A stretch of DNA of 64,000 nt from Escherichia coli (GTDB lineage Bacteria > Pseudomonadota > Gammaproteobacteria > Enterobacterales > Enterobacteriaceae), in the NCBI RefSeq assembly GCF_030384885.1, contig NZ_CP128615.1, one strand, 5' to 3'. Shown one piece after another: positions 3,578 to 63,543 of this stretch (within the stretch, counting starts at the first letter, position 1; the number at the start of each line of letters is the position of its first letter). The notes below the pieces were generated by a model. It saw nothing but the letters and a program-made list of their open reading frames with translations, was not told the origin of the DNA and did no database searches. Both the position numbers and the translations under genes were made by a program.

Positions 3578-4149
3578 AGTATCGCTTTATCAACGATCAC
3601 CGTGAAATCTGGTCGATCGTTACAATGTGTCGGGTCCTTAAGGTTGCCCGTGCCGGATTTTATGTCTGGCTCCATAACCCTGTATCTGCCGGAGAAAAGG
3701 ATAACCAGCGACTGCTGGAACTCATCCGCGACTCCTATACGCTGAGTGGTGGAGTTTACGGTTATCGCAGGGTTCATGGCGATCTTCGCGAAATTGGCGA
3801 AGTGTGCAGCAGAAACCGGGTTGCCAAAATCATGAGGAAAAACAGGATTCAGGCTATACATGGTTATAAAGTGCCACGCGGGAGCCGGGGACGACCGTCA
3901 CTGATAGCGCCTAATCACGTGCGGCGTGAATTTACTGTAGTGAAGCCCAATCAGGTGTGGGTCACCGACATCACCTACATCCGCACCTGGCAGGGCTGGC
4001 TGTACCTGGCAGTGGTTATCGATCTTTTTGCCCGTAATGTGGTGGGCTGGTCGATGAAGCCGACACTGTCGCGCGAGCTGGCACTGGATGCGCTGCTGAT
4101 GGCGGTCTGGCGACGTAAACCTGAAGAAAACGTCATTGTGCACAGCGAT
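3540..4149 (+). pseudogene. IS3-family transposase OrfB, 5' part (interrupted after HSD of the DDE motif)
   Basis: RLKYRFINDHREIW...WVTDITYI...VIVHSD, then unrelated sequence from 4150. Confidence 0.8.
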
Positions 4150-24696: not shown

Positions 24697-24960
24697 ATGA
24701 AGAAGCGTTTTTCCGACGAACAGATCATCAGTATTCTCCGCGAAGCCGAAGCTGGGGTACCCGCCCGTGAACTCTGCCGCAAGCATGCCATTTCCGATGC
24801 CACGTTTTACACCTGGCGTAAGAAGTATGGCGGTATGGAGGTGCCTGAAGTTAAGCGCCTGAAGTCGCTTGAGGAAGAGAACGCCAGACTCAAGAAGCTG
24901 CTTGCCGAAGCCATGCTGGATAAAGAGGCGCTTCAGGTGGCTCTTGGGCGAAAGTACTGA
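24697..24960 (+). CDS. IS3-family OrfA
   Basis: MKKRFSDEQIISILREAEAGVPARELCRKHAISDATFYTWRKKYGG... Confidence 0.85.
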   Translation: MKKRFSDEQIISILREAEAGVPARELCRKHAISDATFYTWRKKYGGMEVPEVKRLKSLEEENARLKKLLAEAMLDKEALQVALGRKY

Positions 24961-24983
24961 CGACAGACCAGAAGCGGGAAGCC

Positions 24984-25207
24984 GTGATGCTGATGTGTGA
25001 TGCGACCGGTCTGTCGCAACGTCGTGCCTGCAGGCTTACAGGTTTGTCCCTGTCGACCTGCCGCTATGAGGCTCACCGTCCGGCTGCTGATGCGCATTTA
25101 TCAGGGCGCATCACTGAGCTGGCACTGGAGCGCAGGCGTTTTGGCTACCGTCGTATTTGGCAATTGCTGCGCCGTGAAGGGCTTCATGTTAATCATAAGC
25201 GCGTGTA
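24984..25207 (+). pseudogene. IS3-family OrfB, N-terminal fragment only
   Basis: ...ELALERRRFGYRRIWQLLRREGLHVNHKRV, then unrelated sequence. Confidence 0.75.
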
Positions 25208-34077: not shown

Positions 34078-34300
34078 CGCTTTTCAGTATCTCGACAGGG
34101 ATAACTTACTTTACCATCGGTTATCCCTTTTAGCCGCACAAATTTTAGCCATGGCTTTTCAGGAAGTCAGGGCTATCAGAATGGCCTTAGAAAGCCTAGT
34201 CAAAGAGCTGTCACGAGAACACCGTTAGCTTAGCGTACGATTTTTTCCGAATTCTGCGGTTCCCCCTTAATTTCAGTATCTGTTATTACAGTTGGGTATC

Positions 34301-34372: not shown

Positions 34373-34745
34373 GGGGTCAGTTTGGATATCGAAAATTATT
34401 GTACGTTAAGGTCGTTTTTTGACCTTTCTACTTTAGCTGGCCTCAGCCGACGAAACTTACCGGAGGCCGGTATTCTGTTGTTTTTCCAGATGTAATCGCC
34501 TGTCAGATTGATATGCTCCCAGCCTAACGGCGACAAATGTGACAGCAGTTGCTCGTTGATCTTCACCCCTTTACGCTTCAGGGCATCGACCGCTCTTTCC
34601 ATATACACTGTATTCCACAGCGAGATAGTTGCTGTCAGCAGCGTCAGTCCACTGGCGCGGTAGCTCTGATTTTCCGGTTTACGATCCCTGATTTCACCCA
34701 GACGGTGCAGGAATACCGCGCGCGCTAGAGAGAGCTCCCATCGCT
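34373..34745 (-). mobile_element. Tn3-family transposon end: 38-bp inverted repeat plus the last ~115 codons of tnpA
   Basis: GGGGTCAGTTTGGATATCGAAAATTATTGTACGTTAAG. Minus-strand ORF ...[16 protein letters not shown]...[16 protein letters not shown]...; homology lost upstream of about 34745. Confidence 0.75.
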
Positions 34746-47363: not shown

Positions 47364-49311
47364 CGGCAGGCGATCTGGATTATCGTCACGCTGTTAAATA
47401 TGTCGCGGTAGGGATACCCGTTACCGGATACCCCCCGCACAGATCCCGGCGTGCGCGATTTACGCACCGGGCTCCTGCCTCGGGTGTCTGGCGGTGAACC
47501 GCTCCACAGGCCATGGATGAAGAACCCGAACCCTTGGTAGCCATGCGGCTGCCAGTTTGTTTGCTTTCGTCCAGGTCGTATCATCCTTCTGGCTCCTGCG
47601 CCTGAGCGCCCGGCGCCAGAGGTTTGTTACGTGTGTCCTGAACTTCTGCATGGTGGGGAAGTTGCCCGGTACCGAGTGATAGTTCAGGTATCCCTGAACC
47701 ACTCTCCTGAGCCATTTTCCCTGTTCGGGGATTGAGTAATGCCAGCGCCTTCGCAGACCGTCTTTGATGGCTTTCAGAGTTGCCGTCATCCGATCCCGGC
47801 GGGTCTTTCGTATCAGCATGAACCTGCCGTTGCGATCTTTCCCGCTGATGTGCGTGAACCCGAGGAAGTTGAACGTTTCTGGTTTGCCTTTTCCCCTGAT
47901 GGCACGGTTTTCGGCAGCGAAGCGGCCGAACTCCATCAGACGGGTTTTCTCCGGGTGAACCGTGAGTCCGAACTCCCTCAGTCTGCGCTGCATGGCTATA
48001 CGGAAGCGCCGGGCATCGTATCGTTTGTCGAACCCGATGACGATGTCATCGGCGTATCTGACCATTACCACATTGCCTGTGGCATAGCGACGTCGCCACT
48101 GATGCGCCCACAGATCGAAGACGTAGTGGAGGTATATGTTTGCCAGCAGCGGTGAGATGACCGCACCCTGTGGGGTGCCTTCCTCCGTTGCTCGCCATTG
48201 ACCCTCCTCCAACGTCCCGGCTGTGAGCCACTTACGTATGAGCCTGATTACGCTCCGGTCGCCGATCCGATGCTCTGTGAACCTGATCAGCCATTCGTGG
48301 CTCACCCTGTCGAAGAACTGACTGATGTCGGCATCCAGTACCCAGTTTACGTTAGTGCGTACCAGCCCTGTGGCCAGTGCGTCCAGTGCATCGTGCTGGC
48401 TTCGCCCGGGTCTGAACCCGTATGAGAACCCCATAAAGTCGTTTTCATAGACTGCGTTCAGGATTTTCACCAGCGCATACTGGACGATCTTGTCCTCCAG
48501 CGAGGCGATGCCGAGCGGGCGTTGTTTTCCATCCGCTTTTGGGATGTAGTGACGCCTGCCGGGCTGCGCCCTGTAGCTGCCCTAATGTAGCCTCCGGTGC
48601 AGATCTGTTATGTTGTTCTTCATGTTTCCGGCGTAGTCCATCCACCTGATGCCATCCACTCCGGCGGCCGCTTTCCTGCTCAGGGAGAGGAATGCGGCTT
48701 CCAGTGCTTCGACTGTCAGCAGGTGGAACAATGCTGTAAACCGTTCTTTCTTCCGCTGCTTCGCAGCTTCCCGCACGCGTGACAGCCTCTGTGACATGCT
48801 TTCCCGGCTCTGTGTCCGGCGCATGTGTGGCTGTTCCGCGTTCCCCTTGGCCCCGCTCCTTCGCTCCACTGACTCCGCTCCTTTCGGGTTGTTCGCCTGC
48901 TTCGCCGCTACTATGAGCGAGTCCGACTTCTCCTCTCCGTACATCACCGGCTATGACTCCTCGTCTTCCCGGTGCGGGCCGTCTCCGACACTGGCAGATG
49001 GTCAGAGGGGAGATCTCCCGGTTCCCGCGTAGAGATCGTATTGACATGCCAGGGTCTCAGACCCCGCCGGGTCCATGTGGCACTCGCAGTATCGCACCCT
49101 ATGATGTTGCCTTCCGTTAACAGTACAACGTCGGCACCCGGTAATTTAATATACATTTCGTGGCTCAATGGCTGGCCTGTCAACACCCCTGTCAACGCTT
49201 CGCCCCATACCTCGCGGTATGCAACGCATGACTCGGGGACCTTGTGGATTGCTGGTCCTTCAATGGTCGGGGACTTTCACCCCTTGATCTCTACCGGTCT
49301 CCCGGTGAACA
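47364..49311 (-). mobile_element. bacterial group II intron (ends not resolved; 3' side abuts IS1)
   Basis: RT/maturase ORF in domain IV. Domain V-like 34-nt hairpin with GUAA tetraloop and 2-nt bulge at 47405-47438. About 360 nt of structured 5' RNA (GGTGAAAGTCC etc.). Confidence 0.7.
47460..48947 (-). pseudogene. group II intron reverse transcriptase/maturase with one in-frame TAG (codon 122 of 496)
   Basis: ORFs 48582..48947 and 47460..48470 are in the same frame (1488 nt), joined as ...DLHRRLH*GSYRAQPGRRHYIPKADGKQRPLG...; YADD motif; no endonuclease domain. Confidence 0.8.
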
Positions 49312-53593: not shown

Positions 53594-53648
53594 CAGCGCT
53601 CGCCGCAGCCATGTAACCGAGCGTAGCGAGCGAACTGGCGAGGAAGCG
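53594..53648 (-). other. ColE1 n'-type primosome-assembly-site-like element (ssi/pas)
   Basis: Reverse complement CGCTTCCTCGCCAGTTCGCTCGCTACGCTCGGTTACATGGCTGCGGCGAGCGCTG resembles pBR322 CGCTTCCTCGCTCACTGACTCGCTGCGCTCGGTCGTTCGGCTGCGGCGAGCGG (from memory). Confidence 0.45.
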
Positions 53649-53710
53649 AAGAGGAACCGTTCCGGCAGATAGCTCTTACGCTCAGCACAAGAAGAGTTTT
53701 CCATCCTCTG

Positions 53711-55250: not shown

Positions 55251-55313
55251 CGAGGGGAGGTGATTTTTCAGGCATTGAGCGTAAGCAGAATTTATAAGTT
55301 TTGTTCCCTGGTG

Positions 55314-55366
55314 CTTCCTCGCTCACTCGGGGCTTCGCCCTGTCGCTCGACTGCGGCGAGCACTGC
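55314..55366 (+). other. second ColE1 n'-pas-like element
   Basis: GCTTCCTCGCTCACTCGGGGCTTCGCCCTGTCGCTCGACTGCGGCGAGCACTG. Confidence 0.45.
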
Positions 55367-55590
55367 TGGCTCGATCATATCCGTGGCCGGAAGATACTAC
55401 TCCTCCCCCGAGTCGCTCTCCAGAGCCGGCTACAGCGAGACAACCCGCACGAAGATTTCTATCGTCCCTGCAGACATATTCGAATCGTTTTTATTAACCC
55501 TGGCTTCCGTCGTGACAGAACACTACGTCCTGTAAAAGGGGGACTAAGGCCCCTGAATCACACACCTGAATAATGCGGAGTTTTACGATA

Positions 55591-58610: not shown

Positions 58611-58841
58611 ATGCGCACAGTTTCGATATTTAAAAACGGCAATAACCGCGCCATCCGTCTGCCCCGGGACCTGGATTTTGACGGCGTCAGCGAGCTGGAG
58701 ATCGTCCGGGAAGGGGACAGCATCATTCTGCGTCCCGTCCGGCCGACCTGGGGCTCGTTCGCGCAGCTGGACAGGGCCGATCCGGACTTTATGGCGGAGC
58801 GTGAGGATGTGGTCAGCGATGAAGGACGCTTTGAGCCATGA
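58611..58841 (+). CDS. vagC: second copy of the VagC antitoxin
   Basis: Protein identical to 2446..2676; at least one synonymous DNA difference (GAT to GAC). Confidence 0.9.
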   Translation: MRTVSIFKNGNNRAIRLPRDLDFDGVSELEIVREGDSIILRPVRPTWGSFAQLDRADPDFMAEREDVVSDEGRFEP

Positions 58842-58991: not shown

Positions 58992-59775
<784 letters not shown>

Positions 59776-59779
<4 letters not shown>

Positions 59780-60417
59780 AACAGCTCCTCATAGGCACTC
59801 AGTGGTCGATGTTCCACCTGACTGACCTGCTGCCAGAGCGGGGCGTGATGCTCCGGCACTGTCTGCCAGCCAGACGATGCCGGACAGAGGCGATGTGAGG
59901 CCACCAGTTTCTCATTACTGTAGATCCGCAACTCGTCATCCAGCGATATTCGTATCGATACTGGCTGACCACACAGCGCTTCGGGAACGCTGTAACGATT
60001 ACCACCAACCTCGATATAGCTGTCCCAGGACACATGGCGGATGTCGAAGTAACTGGTATCGAAGTCCGTATCCGGTAACGGCTGCAGATGTTCCTGCTCC
60101 AGCGCGAAGCGCTGTTCCGGCGTTTCTTTGAACTGGCGAAGCTCCCGTTTGTCAGCCACATCGGCTATCCATTGCTCCAGTTGTTGATTAACATGAGTGA
60201 AGCTGTCGAACCTGCGGTACCGGACGAAGAAGTTCTCCTTGAGGTATTTCACCATCCGCTCAACCTTACCTTTTGTTCTGGCCCTGCGTGGACGGCATGC
60301 CCGTGGCAGGAAGTTATAGTGGTCGGCCAGCAACAGGAATCCGGAGTTGAACACGACTTTCCCGTTGTTATTCTTCAGCACCGCAGCCTTCTGGTTATCA
60401 ACCAGCACCGTTTTCAC
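59776..60417 (-). pseudogene. istA: IstA transposase, C-terminal ~215 codons only
   Basis: ...[23 protein letters not shown]...RPRRARTKGKVERMVKYLKENFF... Confidence 0.8.
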
Positions 60418-60604
60418 ACAACCACCGAATTTGATCCCTGAAAACTGTCAGCGCTGCGAGGACGAAGAAAGTATTACGGCTAAAGCCGTAATACCTCCCC
60501 ATCCAGCTTCAAGCTATGTAGAAACTTATGTGGGTAGAGCAGTCCCGACAGGGCAGTACCGCATTGACAGGCCGTCAGGGCCACTTACGAGCTTGTATGA
60601 CAAG

Positions 60605-60642
60605 GGGGGCCGTCTGGATATAGCGAATTATTGTACGGTAAG
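60605..60642 (+). mobile_element. solo 38-bp Tn3-family inverted repeat
   Basis: GGGGGCCGTCTGGATATAGCGAATTATTGTACGGTAAG matches the inverted repeat at 34373 at 31 of 38 positions, same orientation; no tnpA adjacent. Confidence 0.7.
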
Positions 60643-60978
60643 CCTTTTTTGAACAGCCTTACCTATTGCTATAGAGGGGAACTCCTACGTTATACGCCGC
60701 TTTCAGGGGATTCGACCTTAATGAGACAACTCAAATATGATCGACAACTTAAACGCGATAGTTGCTGATAAAATCAATCCATTACGCGTTTCAATTGATT
60801 AAATAATGCACTTAATGTACAAAAATTCCCGATCTCAAAACTGAACCCTAAAGATACCAGGCATCTCCCCCAGGAAGCGCCCTCATGCGTTTTCCTGTTC
60901 CGCCCCTGCCACCTACCTTCTGTTTCATACTTGTTGTATTATTGTTTTTGTTTTCAATCCCCAAGGAGACGTCGCTAT

Positions 60979-61146
60979 ATGACTGTGCGGGAGACAGAGG
61001 AAAACATTGAACAAATCTTCCCTGAGCTTTCGAACTTAATTGATATTATTAATAAATGGCTTTCCCATGGAAACATTGATCCTGAACTGGCACACTTCAT
61101 CATTTATCTTCTTGATTACCTAACCACCACACACAAAAGCATATAA
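60979..61146 (+). CDS. 55-aa ORF (doubtful)
   Basis: AAGGAG 10 nt upstream; MTVRETEENIEQIFPELSNLIDIINKWLSHGNIDPELAHF...; lies where a primer-RNA-like transcript would run antisense. Confidence 0.25.
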   Translation: MTVRETEENIEQIFPELSNLIDIINKWLSHGNIDPELAHFIIYLLDYLTTTHKSI

Positions 61147-61190
61147 AAATTTTCCTTGCACATCCATTTTTTTGCGAATATTATTATTCC

Positions 61191-61289
61191 TGCTGAATAT
61201 GATTCAATATCGCACGCTACTCATCCATCCCAGGATAATGAGTACATAGGTTGAAGTTTCAACACCCCCATTACGGGGGTGTTTTTTTT
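61191..61289 (+). ncRNA. candidate ~100-nt sRNA (RNA I-like antisense RNA?)
   Basis: Promoter TTGCAC (61156-61161) -17- TATTAT (61179-61184). Four stem-loops. Intrinsic terminator ACACCCCC-ATTAC-GGGGGTGT + T7 (61262-61289). Confidence 0.5.
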
Positions 61290-61405
61290 ACCAATAAACA
61301 CAAATCACACCATCGCCATACTCTGTTTGCCAGACATCGATTGGTAAATATGCGTAACTCGCTATAATACAAAAAGAAAAATCAGAACCAGAAACCAGTT
61401 TCCAG

Positions 61406-61501
61406 ATAAAAAACACCCTCCCGAAGGAGGGGACAGACACATTCATATTTCCCAAAACAGGAATTTTTATTTTTATGACGCATTAATGAAGTTACTTCAT
61501 C
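61406..61501 (-). ncRNA. candidate ~96-nt sRNA, convergent with the previous one
   Basis: Minus-strand promoter TTGATC (61531-61536) -17- TAATCT (61508-61513). Terminator CCCTCC-TTCG-GGAGGG + T6 (61406-61431). Confidence 0.4.
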
Positions 61502-61703
61502 TCCAGTAGATTAACTTCATTTAAAGTGGCGATCAATCATATTTATTACGACTCTAAACTATTACAACAACCACAATAAGATATCACCTCAAATATAAAA
61601 GATAACTCTTACAAAAACGTTCCGAAAACAAAAAATACAGATAAACACCAATAAAAAACAGAAAACTCTTACACATTTAAAGATGGTAAAATAATATAGA
61701 ACT

Positions 61704-61803
61704 GTTAGTCTAATGGAGAAGGCGCATCTGATTCAGAGCAATCTATTGCGAAGAATCAGAGTAACAGGGCCCCATGATATAATCATGGGGCCCTGTTGCT
61801 TTT
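61704..61803 (+). ncRNA. candidate ~100-nt sRNA or leaderless small transcript
   Basis: Promoter TTACAC (61669-61674) -17- TAATAT (61692-61697). 15-bp perfect hairpin AACAGGGCCCCATGA-TATAA-TCATGGGGCCCTGTT (61763-61797) followed by GCTTTT. Confidence 0.4.
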
Positions 61804-62021
61804 ACAGATGTAAAAACGACCAATCATTTAACATCTGTTATCGGCACCGCCCCGGACGGGTTCGGCGCAAATATGGTATGGTACCAGCCCGGCAATTCAC
61901 CTGCCGTGCAATCTGACGAAGCAGTACCGGCGTATGCAGATATATCGTCCAGACATATCTGCCGCATTCAGGCGGTGAGTAAAGCCTTCTCTCTCAAAAG
62001 AGGAGCAACAGTTATCCACAG

Positions 62022-62030
62022 ATTCTGGGG
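62022..62030 (+). promoter_or_regulatory. consensus DnaA box TTATCCACA
   Basis: Perfect 9-mer followed by GGGGATAAC, as in the pMB1 DnaA-box region. Confidence 0.5.
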
Positions 62031-62184
62031 ATAACTGCGAAAAGAATATGTGCCAGGAAAGTCGGCTCCCGGGAAAAAGACCGCTGGCGGCGCAGCTGCT
62101 GGATACGAAAGCTGAGCTGAAAGGATCCCGGGAGGACGTCCGTAAACTTCAGTCCCTGGCCCGTCATGACGGGAAGGTGAAAAA

Positions 62185-62826
62185 GTGAATGCGGATACCT
62201 GGACCCGCCTGCAGGCCTTCCGACATGCTCTGGAGCTGACTTCCTGTGAGGCTTCTCTCACCGCCGGGTATGATCACCTGAAGGATTTCCCGGCCGGTTG
62301 CAGCGAGCTGGCCAGCCAGACGCTGACTGATTATCTGACGGAAGACGGCAGCAACCTGTACTCCTGTATTGTCGGTATGCAGTGGGATAATGGTCCTGGC
62401 AGATACGGCCACGTCATTGCCGCCCCTGCCAGGGACTATATCGACCTGACCCTTGATCAGTTTCCAGGCTATCATAACCGGATTGTGGCAGAGCCCGTTG
62501 AGTCCGGCGGACAGCTCGCGGCAGACCTCAACAGGGAGCCTGCCATCAGTACAGCTGATGGAATAGTGGCCAGCGCATCAGATAAGGTTAATTACATTAC
62601 TGAACAGAAAAATCGCCAGCCAATGGTGATCATTACAGAATGTTACAAGCTGATCAGAATAACGGCAAGATTTATACCAATGTGCCAGTCATCTCAACTC
62701 TTCCAGCACCAGGTATTCCCTCGCTTATTTATCATTTCAGACGTTGGCTCCTGCAGTTTGTCCAGGAACACCTTAGATCGTTTAGCTACTGACTGGAAGG
62801 TGACACTGTCCATCCTGTCGCTATAG
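62185..62826 (+). CDS. hypothetical protein (213 aa) with possible Cys-His-Asp papain/transglutaminase-like triad
   Basis: GTG start with AAGGTG RBS; FPAGCSELAS ... YGHVIAAP ... DYIDLTLDQF. The C-terminal ~45 codons look non-protein-like and overlap a convergent ORF. Confidence 0.45.
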   Translation: MNADTWTRLQAFRHALELTSCEASLTAGYDHLKDFPAGCSELASQTLTDYLTEDGSNLYSCIVGMQWDNGPGRYGHVIAAPARDYIDLTLDQFPGYHNRIVAEPVESGGQLAADLNREPAISTADGIVASASDKVNYITEQKNRQPMVIITECYKLIRITARFIPMCQSSQLFQHQVFPRLFIISDVGSCSLSRNTLDRLATDWKVTLSILSL

Positions 62827-63014
62827 GGCTTGATATAAACCTGGCAGGCAAGGGATCTGGTTAACTCCTTTCCTTCCATAAAGTGTTTGAAGATCCAGAG
62901 ATACGTATCCACAAGCTCCAGCCCTGTACTCTGTGTCCCCGACTGGAAGACCTGCGGTTCAGCTGGTATTTCCGTTACATCCATGACCGGTGTCTGCGCA
63001 GCAGTGCCTGTCAT
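62694..63014 (-). CDS. hypothetical ORF (106 aa)
   Basis: Open frame only; weak RBS; overlaps the previous ORF by 133 nt. Confidence 0.3.
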   Translation of the reverse strand: MTGTAAQTPVMDVTEIPAEPQVFQSGTQSTGLELVDTYLWIFKHFMEGKELTRSLACQVYIKPYSDRMDSVTFQSVAKRSKVFLDKLQEPTSEMINKRGNTWCWKS

Positions 63015-63489
63015 CAGGATCCTGTCACTCTTTCGACCGACAGCTTATGGCATACAGTTGGGCTCGTAAGATCCAGAGTCAATAACTGACAGGGTTTATT
63101 CTGTCATCCTCCGGCAACAAAGGCATATACGATATTCACTTATTTTGTCGGCCCAACGGCTTTTTACAGTAGCTCGTTTTGCCCAACTGATGCTACAGCT
63201 CTTTGGTTTGCTTCATCACGGATATCAGCTCCGACACAGGCACAGCTGACTGGTTGCAACGTCTGCACTTCTCTGGACCTGAAACGTCAATTATCAGGAT
63301 TCTGACGATTAGTCTTAAGACTGTCGGTAAATTAAGTGATGCCAGTTGTCAGGATATTCATGGAGCCAGTCTGCATGCGCCTCTGGCGTTGAGACAAACA
63401 TATGAAGTGTATTTCGGATATGACTGTACGCTCAGGAAGTACGGCAGATTCCGTCAAAAATTACCTGTAAAGACAGACTTCAGAAAAAA

Positions 63490-63543
63490 CAGTGCTCGCC
63501 GCAGACCGGTGACCGGGCGAAGCCCGCGAACCGGCGAGGAAGC
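63490..63543 (-). other. third ColE1 n'-pas-like element
   Basis: Reverse complement GCTTCCTCGCCGGTTCGCGGGCTTCGCCCGGTCACCGGTCTGCGGCGAGCACTG is about 75% identical to 55314-55366. Confidence 0.45.

Follow-up and report, generated by a model that had tools for sequence, protein, structure and literature searches.

What DNA separates the pif genes of the F plasmid from its RepFIB initiator gene, and how did it come to reside there? The question is addressed here through the counterpart of this region in an Escherichia coli plasmid, within a stretch of 64,000 nucleotides of contig NZ_CP128615.1 (assembly GCF_030384885.1; hereafter the window), of which positions 60428-63020 are 99.4% identical to F (NC_002483, L001). 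In all records, the sole annotation of 60600-62200 (1.6 kb) is ‘hypothetical protein’. An earlier reading of the sequence (the original prediction) had suggested that a ColE1-type mini-replicon of ~1.3 kb lies here, integrated in circularly permuted form and broken at its origin of replication (ori). The analysis described below indicates that 60605-62089 is probably a decayed, permuted relic of a small mobilizable ColE1-type plasmid that was fused into an ancestral F-like (IncFIB-bearing) plasmid, and that it is not a replicon.

The reference plasmids were ColE1 itself (L002), small ColE1-type plasmids that bear the RNAI gene (L003-L005, which include pEA26_4, pSCU-105-2 and plasmid p1 of E. 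coli J-8, this last being L005, NZ_CP047008), and the ColRNAI plasmid NC_021843 (L008). Two segments of the window, designated A and B (Table 1), match the DNA that flanks ori in such plasmids, one on each side. Segment A corresponds to DNA of the replication primer, RNA II, and is 83-87% identical to ColE1, L003, L004 and L005 (E 3e-15 to 5e-19); in a search of a plasmid collection, which returned 4,981 records in all, the same 69-bp match is repeated among small mobilizable plasmids. Its homology starts at the exact outer end of a miniature transposable element and stops suddenly at 60917, past which real ColE1-type plasmids remain near-identical to one another for several hundred further bases, and the GC content steps from 59% in A to 34% in the next 62 bp (60917/60918). 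Segment B, whose homology covers 61986-62052 and extends to 62084-62089, is 73-84% identical to L002-L005 (E 1e-8 to 1e-11), includes a conserved hairpin (62009-62037), and ends at the equivalent of the RNA-DNA switch. Both segments lie on one strand, and in neither case was the alignment score reached by any of 500 shuffled sequences. Real ColE1-type plasmids present B, ori, 80-81 bp, A, 273-298 bp and RNA I, in that order; in the window A comes first and B follows 1.07 kb later, an arrangement that is genuinely circularly permuted relative to theirs. The expectation that ColE1-type DNA would be found here in permuted form, with significant BLAST similarity to ColE1-family origins on both sides of ori, is thus confirmed, and is strengthened by the mobilization (mob) remnants described below. 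The limits originally drawn were too wide: within 60786-60917, aligned with the pMB1 sequence right of ori, only 60849-60917 corresponds to it, the remainder being the right end of the transposable element, and within 61850-62089, aligned with the left side, only 61986-62089 does, the supposed pas-like stretch at 61850-61985 consisting of a mob 3'-end patch and a MobC fragment.

These mob remnants provide a third module. The 44-bp patch that follows the AT-rich interior of the relic matches the 3' end of the mob operon of L008, whose positions 882-989 are equivalent to ColE1 3796-3902; it is preceded by a GC step from 29% to 59% (61828/61829), and many mobilizable plasmids of 4-10 kb carry matches to it. 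Next to it lies a fragment of a gene for a MobC/MbeC-family relaxosome protein, interrupted by an in-frame stop and a frameshift, which aligns with L008 2664-2800, within the MobC coding sequence (blastn E 6e-5 and 0.003), and, in tblastn, through two collinear high-scoring segment pairs (54.5% and 64.3% identity, E 0.001 each). The sequence CAGGCGGTGAGTA (61968-61980), considered as the ColE1 ‘AAAGGCGGTAATAC’ motif, was dropped as such, the MobC fragment having a 35-bp DNA alignment and protein-level support. In ColE1-type plasmids, the circular order starting from A is RNA II/RNA I, cargo, mob 3' end, mob 5' end, oriT, pas, B and ori; the window displays, on one strand, A, the AT-rich interior, mob 3' end, MobC fragment and B. 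Four patches from three modules (primer region, mob operon and ori-downstream DNA) therefore share one strand and one circular order when compared to L005 and L008, which, by our own estimate, four random fragments would do in ~1 case in 48. This agreement supports a circularly permuted ColE1-type plasmid, and such collinear fragments, stemming from several modules of a ColE1-type plasmid, are what the relic of a cointegrate with a large plasmid would hold.

The left junction is formed by a 244-bp element that aligns over its full length with MITESen1 of ISFinder (198/242 positions, 81.8% identity; reference sequence from Table S2 of PMC13367494), and whose 38-nt terminal inverted repeats are 71% complementary. 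It thus has the features of a MITESen1-family, Tn3-derived inverted-repeat miniature element (TIME), namely a short, non-coding sequence with ~38-bp Tn3-family repeats; full-length copies with 70-77% identity to it are present in many unrelated plasmid contexts. It had been proposed that a solo Tn3-type inverted repeat stands beside the captured DNA; this repeat is one of a pair, and the homology of A starts at the outer tip of the other. The adjoining stretch 60786-60848 (‘GCGTTT...ACAAAAAT’), read as the DNA between ori and A, does not exceed chance level when aligned with that ColE1 interval, its score being reached by 48-367 of 500 shuffles, and ‘ACAAAAAT’ falls within the terminal repeat of the element. 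The flanking pentamers, ACAAG on the left and TAAAG on the right, reveal no 5-bp target-site duplication, as would be expected at a cointegrate or deletion junction rather than at a simple insertion. Other candidates for the identity of the element were set aside: pSC101, home of IS101, yields no match, and TIME244, IS101 and IMU produce short alignments only (38, 108 and 54 positions; 55-74% identity), TIME244 sharing the 244-bp length yet aligning over 38 positions at just 55%.

The right junction is best understood by comparison with two diverged IncFIB relatives, L006 (CP057886, IncFIB/FIC) and L007, the latter being 92.4% identical to window 60750-62089. In both, segment B runs beyond the equivalent of 62089 as ...GCTGGCG/TTTTATATGGGCTCTGCCCTCTGACGAGTATCACAAAAAAGAACGC (the slash marks the switch), a degraded but recognizable ColE1 ori with 46-47 bp of primer-proximal DNA, followed by an IS3-family fragment. 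They keep TTTTATATGGG...CTGCCCTCTG in degraded form, and the C-run at -20 is itself degraded in L007. In ColE1-type plasmids, 80-81 bp separate the switch from the TAAAG at which A starts. Since the ColE1 sequence of the two relatives passes through ori and only ~34 bp of the full circle are unaccounted for, the ancestral opening point is this TAAAG, 81 bp upstream of ori and beside the MITESen1-family element, and not the origin, where the break had been placed.

In the F lineage, a further deletion occurred on this side. The pO157-type plasmid L009 displays an uninterrupted arrangement of ccdBA, a complete gene for a 199-amino-acid DNA-binding protein, a homologue of the 213-amino-acid open reading frame (ORF) of the window, and RepFIB, with neither the MITESen1-family element, nor pif, nor the ColE1 relic. 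In the window, the 3' remnant of the 199-amino-acid gene forms the tail of a chimeric ORF (62048-62188) that overlaps the start of the 213-amino-acid ORF (62185-62826); Pfam yields no match for either the chimeric 46-amino-acid product or the 213-amino-acid one. At the junction, the window reads CCGCTGGCGGCGCAGCTGCTGG, the intact gene of L009 CACCTGGCGGCGCAGCTGCAGG, and ColE1-type plasmids GCCGCTGGCG/TTTTTCC; in a longer context, the intact gene reads ...CACCTGGCGGCGCAGCTG... and the window ...CCGCTGGCGGCGCAGCTG.... The hexamer CTGGCG at 62084-62089 is thus, as judged from these alignments, a 6-bp microhomology at a secondary deletion junction into the host-plasmid gene. Instead of CTGGCG/TTTTTCC with its upstream C-run, contiguous with primer DNA, the window continues into this gene. 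The coincidence of 62089 with the switch arises because the hexamer is common to ori and the host gene, and the capture of a replication intermediate, proposed on the basis of that coincidence, loses its support; the imagined joining of 62089 to 60786, expected to recreate the switch, yields CTGGCG/GCGTTTC instead of the CTGGCG/TTTTTCC of ColE1.

A route through a MITESen1-mediated cointegrate is put forward as a tentative account of the fusion, with slightly less than even weight. TIMEs move via cointegrates, following the paste-and-copy mechanism of the Tn3 family (PMC13367494). In the proposed scenario, an F-like plasmid carried a MITESen1 copy, which would have undergone replicative transposition into a ColE1-type plasmid of the same cell, at its TAAAG, with the help in trans of a Tn3-family transposase; the outcome would have been an unresolved cointegrate. 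An inverted-repeat tip set against TAAAG and A, no target duplication in the surviving copy, and a small plasmid laid out in permuted order would be expected from such an event. Internal deletions would later have stripped the captured plasmid, mobilizable and several kb in length, of oriT, pas, RNA I and the greater part of both RNA II and mob; the AT-rich interior occupies the place expected for RNA II/RNA I and cargo. In the F lineage, a further deletion via CTGGCG removed the ori-proximal primer DNA that its relatives still possess.

The cointegrate prediction was tested with a synthetic query that joined ...GACTATAAAG to the left inverted repeat of the element. The search identified L012, a Citrobacter freundii IncFIB plasmid, in which pas, ori and 80 bp are followed by ...GACAGGACTATAAG/GAGTCAGTTTGGATAT..., where the second part is a MITESen1-type inverted repeat. 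This is the reciprocal half-junction, located within 2 bp of the opening site of the window. The ColE1 part of L012 is far closer to ordinary ColE1-type plasmids (92-95%) than to the F-lineage relic (~70%, as estimated from the sequences), and for this reason its junction appears to be an independent event; the A-side half was not found in the first 48 kb scanned of its 53.5 kb. Two independent junctions within 2 bp hint that the TAAAG 81 bp upstream of a ColE1-type ori may be a recurrent MITESen1-type target, at which insertion would give rise to ori-inactivated, tolerable fusions. The stability problem of co-integrates between ColE1-type and large plasmids has been raised (PMC8683028). A cut between primer and ori would silence a high-copy origin within a low-copy plasmid, so the separation of the two may be the reason why the fusion was tolerated, which would be a plausible explanation for the fact that relics opened near ori are those observed.

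Several observations weigh against a captured ColE1-type plasmid or against the proposed route. A single copy of the transposable element is present, on the A side; a second MITESen1 copy, in direct repeat, is absent near the relic in the window as well as downstream of ori in L006 and L007, and since it was not found, the transposition mechanism is one that we can only infer. No clean empty site was identified for the left flank (60428-60604), which had only partial matches elsewhere. The MobC assignment is based on short, weak alignments (E ~1e-3). No small plasmid carrying uptR or ORF55, the two genes of the AT-rich interior, was found, and this interior could either have come in as cargo with the captured plasmid or have replaced other DNA later. 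Finally, the start of uptR and the end of A are 274 bp apart, with uptR on the strand of RNA I, and the corresponding distance to RNA I is 273 bp in L003-L005 and 298 bp in ColE1, an agreement whose chance is ~2% by our estimate and which is treated here as a coincidence.

It is this last observation that best serves the idea of a ~1.3-kb mini-replicon, or replication intermediate, opened at the RNA-DNA switch, in which UptR would be an RNA I-type regulator with a minus-strand primer promoter just beyond it; the permuted order of A and B is real, B does end at the switch equivalent, and UptR, like RNA I, ends in a terminator stem-loop. We nevertheless consider this explanation very improbable. 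The Rfam RNAI model (RF00106), which detects the RNAI gene in L002, L003, L004, L005 and L008 with 66-105 bits, returns no match on 60300-62600 even at E<=10, and the small RNA at 61191-61289, taken to be RNA I-like, corresponds to UptR. The primer promoters envisaged near 61304-61332 or 61345-61372 are not borne out, as no minus-strand promoter-like site occurs in 61290-61405, and a minus-strand terminator is located at 61431-61416. RNA II homology is limited to 69 bp and ends at 60917 with the GC step, A being contiguous with no ori, and the would-be primer region is occupied by a plus-strand 55-amino-acid ORF with a good ribosome-binding site, while 60786-60848 belongs to the MITESen1-family element. 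In addition, the relatives are unbroken at ori, with the C-run degraded in L007, and 62089 is accounted for by the microhomology deletion. The proposed unit thus has neither RNA I, nor the 5' ~400 nt of RNA II and its promoter, nor oriT, pas, and most of mob, and we infer that nothing in 60605-62089 can act as a ColE1 replicon. A related notion, namely that the AT-rich interior is control DNA of a highly diverged group of RNA-primed (ColE1-like) replicons that has escaped recognition until now, with UptR as a descendant or analogue of RNA I and the unit as a former minimal replicon, is likewise a long shot.

The same fossil could also have arisen by another route, for example by recombination, whether illegitimate or homologous, of a monomeric or dimeric plasmid, or by fusion mediated by an insertion sequence (IS), with the MITESen1-family element arriving or being rearranged later and trimming the relic by adjacent deletion. 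This is unlikely but deserves consideration: there is a single copy with no target duplication, L006 and L007 have IS3-family fragments at the opposite end, the microhomology junction of the F lineage shows that illegitimate recombination has acted here, and MITESen1 copies that have no direct repeats have been ascribed to deletions (PMC13367494, Fig. S4 legend). The cointegrate route is favored by the fact that A starts exactly at the inverted-repeat tip, and does so at the kind of AT-rich pentamer that Tn3-family elements typically target, and by the reciprocal junction within 2 bp in an independent plasmid; furthermore, adjacent deletion by intramolecular transposition alone would not yield a permuted order. 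That A and B were acquired independently, or represent conserved functional motifs (such as priming or ssi-type signals) that lie 1 kb apart by chance, is scarcely credible. F-like plasmids do hold ColE1 pas-like (n'-type) sequences, at 53594-53653, 55313-55372 and 63491-63543 of the window, but B corresponds to the DNA that separates pas from ori and not to pas itself, A is primer-coding DNA and the MobC fragment a broken gene, neither of which has a plausible role in F, the four patches share strand and circular order, and the pieces of the relic diverge faster than uptR and ORF55.

Table 1. Features of the window between 60605 and 62188; assignments to a captured plasmid are putative (IRL and IRR, left and right inverted repeats).
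Feature	Position	Strand	Remarks
MITESen1-family Tn3-derived inverted-repeat miniature element (TIME), 244 bp	60605-60848	+	IRL 60605-60642, IRR 60811-60848
Segment A	60849-60917 (69 bp)	- (RNA II sense)	Probable relic of primer (RNA II) DNA, ~-81 to -150 upstream of ori
AT-rich interior (35% GC)	60918-61828		Contains ORF55 and uptR, plus ~470 bp of uncharacterised AT-rich DNA
ORF55, 55-amino-acid hypothetical protein (WP_000218294.1 in F)	60979-61146	+	AAGGAG ribosome-binding site upstream
uptR small RNA gene	61192-61283	+	Rfam RF02568
mob operon 3'-end relic	61829-61872 (44 bp)	+	88.6% to L008 855-898, E 6e-11
MobC/MbeC-family relaxosome-protein pseudogene fragment	61880-61979	-	Residues ~23-73, in-frame stop and frameshift
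Segment B	61986-62089 (~104 bp)	+	Probable relic of DNA just downstream of ori, leading-strand side
CTGGCG microhomology	62084-62089		Junction of ColE1 relic and truncated host-plasmid gene
3' remnant of 199-amino-acid ‘DNA-binding protein’ gene	62084-62188	+	76% to L009 3001-3117

The AT-rich interior has a different character, being unrelated to RNA II and to any ColE1-type plasmid. In small plasmids, blastn matched only the 44-bp mob patch and nothing of the interior, which in matching plasmid records is always linked to A (313 records cover at least 80% of it). UptR, a small RNA reportedly described by Guigueno et al. in 2001 (J Bacteriol 183:1147), is recognized by its Rfam model over positions 1-92 of 92 with 123.3 bits (gathering score 100, E 2e-20), has a promoter-like site (TGCACA-16-TATTAT, 61157-61184) and an intrinsic terminator (61261-61283) with a T-run, and is also present in L006 and L007 (123-125 bits). 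ORF55 has no Pfam match and is found by tblastn only in the same ~361 F-like plasmids; neither gene was detected outside this plasmid lineage by blastn, tblastn or pattern search, and a degenerate UptR pattern, searched in a single genome of each species, yielded 0 matches. Between the window and L007, identity decreases from ORF55 (98.2%) and uptR (97.8%) through the mob patch (95.3%), the MobC fragment (92.0%) and A (91.3%) to B (89.4%), a pattern that fits live genes within dead DNA; the sample is small, and of the three differences in ORF55, two are non-synonymous and one synonymous. The parts of the relic that are likely to be active would be uptR, and perhaps ORF55, only. The ~470-bp stretch ends in a hairpin with a 19-bp stem (61760-61800), followed by TTTT. 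A near-consensus plus-strand promoter (TTGGTA-16-TATAAT, 61341-61368) also occurs within the interior, upstream of the GC-rich hairpin of the minus-strand terminator (61416-61431), and together these features suggest a candidate, unannotated plus-strand transcript of ~430 nt downstream of uptR; in L007, 4 bp are deleted from the -35 region of this promoter, and L006 is devoid of 61768-62002.

Among complete E. coli genomes, 372 of 5,426 contain the region 60600-62200, as do 365 PLSDB plasmids, which are nearly all conjugative IncF plasmids of E. coli; F itself carries the entire block with 99.6% identity. The F plasmid itself is typed as IncFIA, IncFIB and IncFIC only (MOB-suite typing as given by PLSDB). 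To the left of 60428, F sequence is replaced in the window by an IS21-family fragment: an ORF for an AbrB/VapB-like antitoxin (58611-58841) is followed by a PIN/VapC-like ORF that is apparently truncated at ~58981, IS21-family transposase and helper fragments occupy 58992-60417 on the minus strand, and homology to F restarts at 60428. To the right, ~320 bp (63021-63339) present in the window are not in F, where L001 8406-8421 is common to both flanking alignments; this segment is bounded by imperfect 19-nt inverted repeats (63025-63043 and 63321-63339), and may either be a further small mobile insertion or have been deleted from F. The pif block of F (L001 766-5580; pifC, pifA and neighbours, 4.8 kb) is exactly missing from L006, and ~17 bp at a GATCCGTAAC...CGGATC hairpin are common to both boundaries of the block. 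F, L006 and L009 begin to diverge from one another immediately past this hairpin, which for this reason looks like a module boundary.

Elsewhere in the window, two Tn3-family terminal repeats lie ~100 bp apart (34228-34266 and 34373-34422). One of these we take to be a Tn5403/IMU-type inverted repeat (minus-strand GGGGGAACCGCAGAATTCGGAAAAAATCGTACGCTAAG); its neighbour, a solo MITESen1-type inverted repeat (GGGGTCAGTTTGGATATCGAAAATTATTGTACGTTAAGG), is near-identical to the one at the L012 junction. ColE1 sequence adjoins neither repeat, and the MITESen1-type one at 34373-34422 was therefore rejected as the missing second junction of the relic. The 4.5-kb ColE1-type plasmid L005 carries two partial, inverted MITESen1-like copies (1192-1377 and 1969-2104) that flank an ORF of 117 amino acids, a TIME-COMP-like structure, which shows that MITESen1-like elements also reside on small ColE1-type plasmids. 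The pas-like copies mentioned above (~55-60 bp; the first on the minus and the second on the plus strand) are 77-82% identical to the ColE1-type ‘pas’ (CGCTTCCTCGCTCAC...GCTGCGGCGAGCGG), a region situated 110-170 bp downstream of ColE1 origins; the third is also found in F, immediately upstream of RepFIB, and another is located near resD in L009. All three are separate from the relic, which has no pas of its own, and they are presumably n'-type primosome assembly (ssi) sites. The window further contains a group II intron, of which domains D1-D4 are recognized at 49052-49277 on the minus strand (RF02005, 186.6 bits), and an IS3-family insertion sequence, revealed by an IS1222/IS3-family programmed frameshift element at 24927-25044 on the plus strand (RF00383, 152 bits).

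Although F is a textbook plasmid, the 1.7 kb between pif and RepFIB are described in RefSeq only as ‘hypothetical protein’, and literature searches did not identify any description of a ColE1 relic in F. Its interpretation as a fossil would explain an unannotated region found in ~7% of complete E. coli genomes, and would place the orphan small RNA gene uptR in captured small-plasmid DNA, suggesting where its origin and natural target should be sought. It would also add a decayed example, unreported by current replicon typing, to the capture of small plasmids by conjugative ones, and, together with the reciprocal junction in Citrobacter, suggests that surviving fusions are those that cut the ColE1 primer from ori. 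Current understanding is not overturned; the annotation and history of the region are refined.

Comparison with known systems places the relic as follows. Like MITESen1 and other TIMEs, the junction element is plasmid-borne, with 244 bp, 38-bp Tn3-family repeats and 81.8% full-length identity, and, like several MITESen1 copies described in PMC13367494, it has no flanking direct repeats; it is ~18% diverged from the reference MITESen1 and 12 bp shorter, and, unlike MITESen1 at the boundary of a resistance-gene composite (TIME-COMP), it would mark a plasmid-fusion junction. With theta replicons of the ColE1/pMB1 type, the locus shares 69 bp of primer DNA and ~104 bp of ori-downstream DNA (73-87% identity), fragments of the associated MOBP/HEN-type mobilization module, and, in L006 and L007, a recognizable CTGGCG/TTTT switch region; in contrast to such replicons, its primer DNA and ori are separated and permuted, and the ori-proximal primer DNA is deleted in the window, which makes it a relic of this type and not a member. 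UptR, with a full-length match above the gathering score and its own promoter and terminator, is no different as an RNA from RF02568, and what is new is its genomic setting within a ColE1-plasmid relic on F-like plasmids. The closest parallel is provided by the 64 large plasmids with ColE1 origins, including a ColE1/IncF clade, that were reported as arising ‘mostly via transposases’ (Ares-Arroyo et al. 2021, PMC8683028): in both cases, an IncF-type plasmid harbours ColE1-type DNA whose junction is marked by a transposable element. Those co-integrates were detected through an intact ColE1 ori, whereas the relic of the window is too decayed for replicon typing and is located in the archetypal F plasmid itself. 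It is therefore best read as a new, heavily decayed case of a known event, in which a large conjugative plasmid captures one of ColE1 type at a transposon junction.

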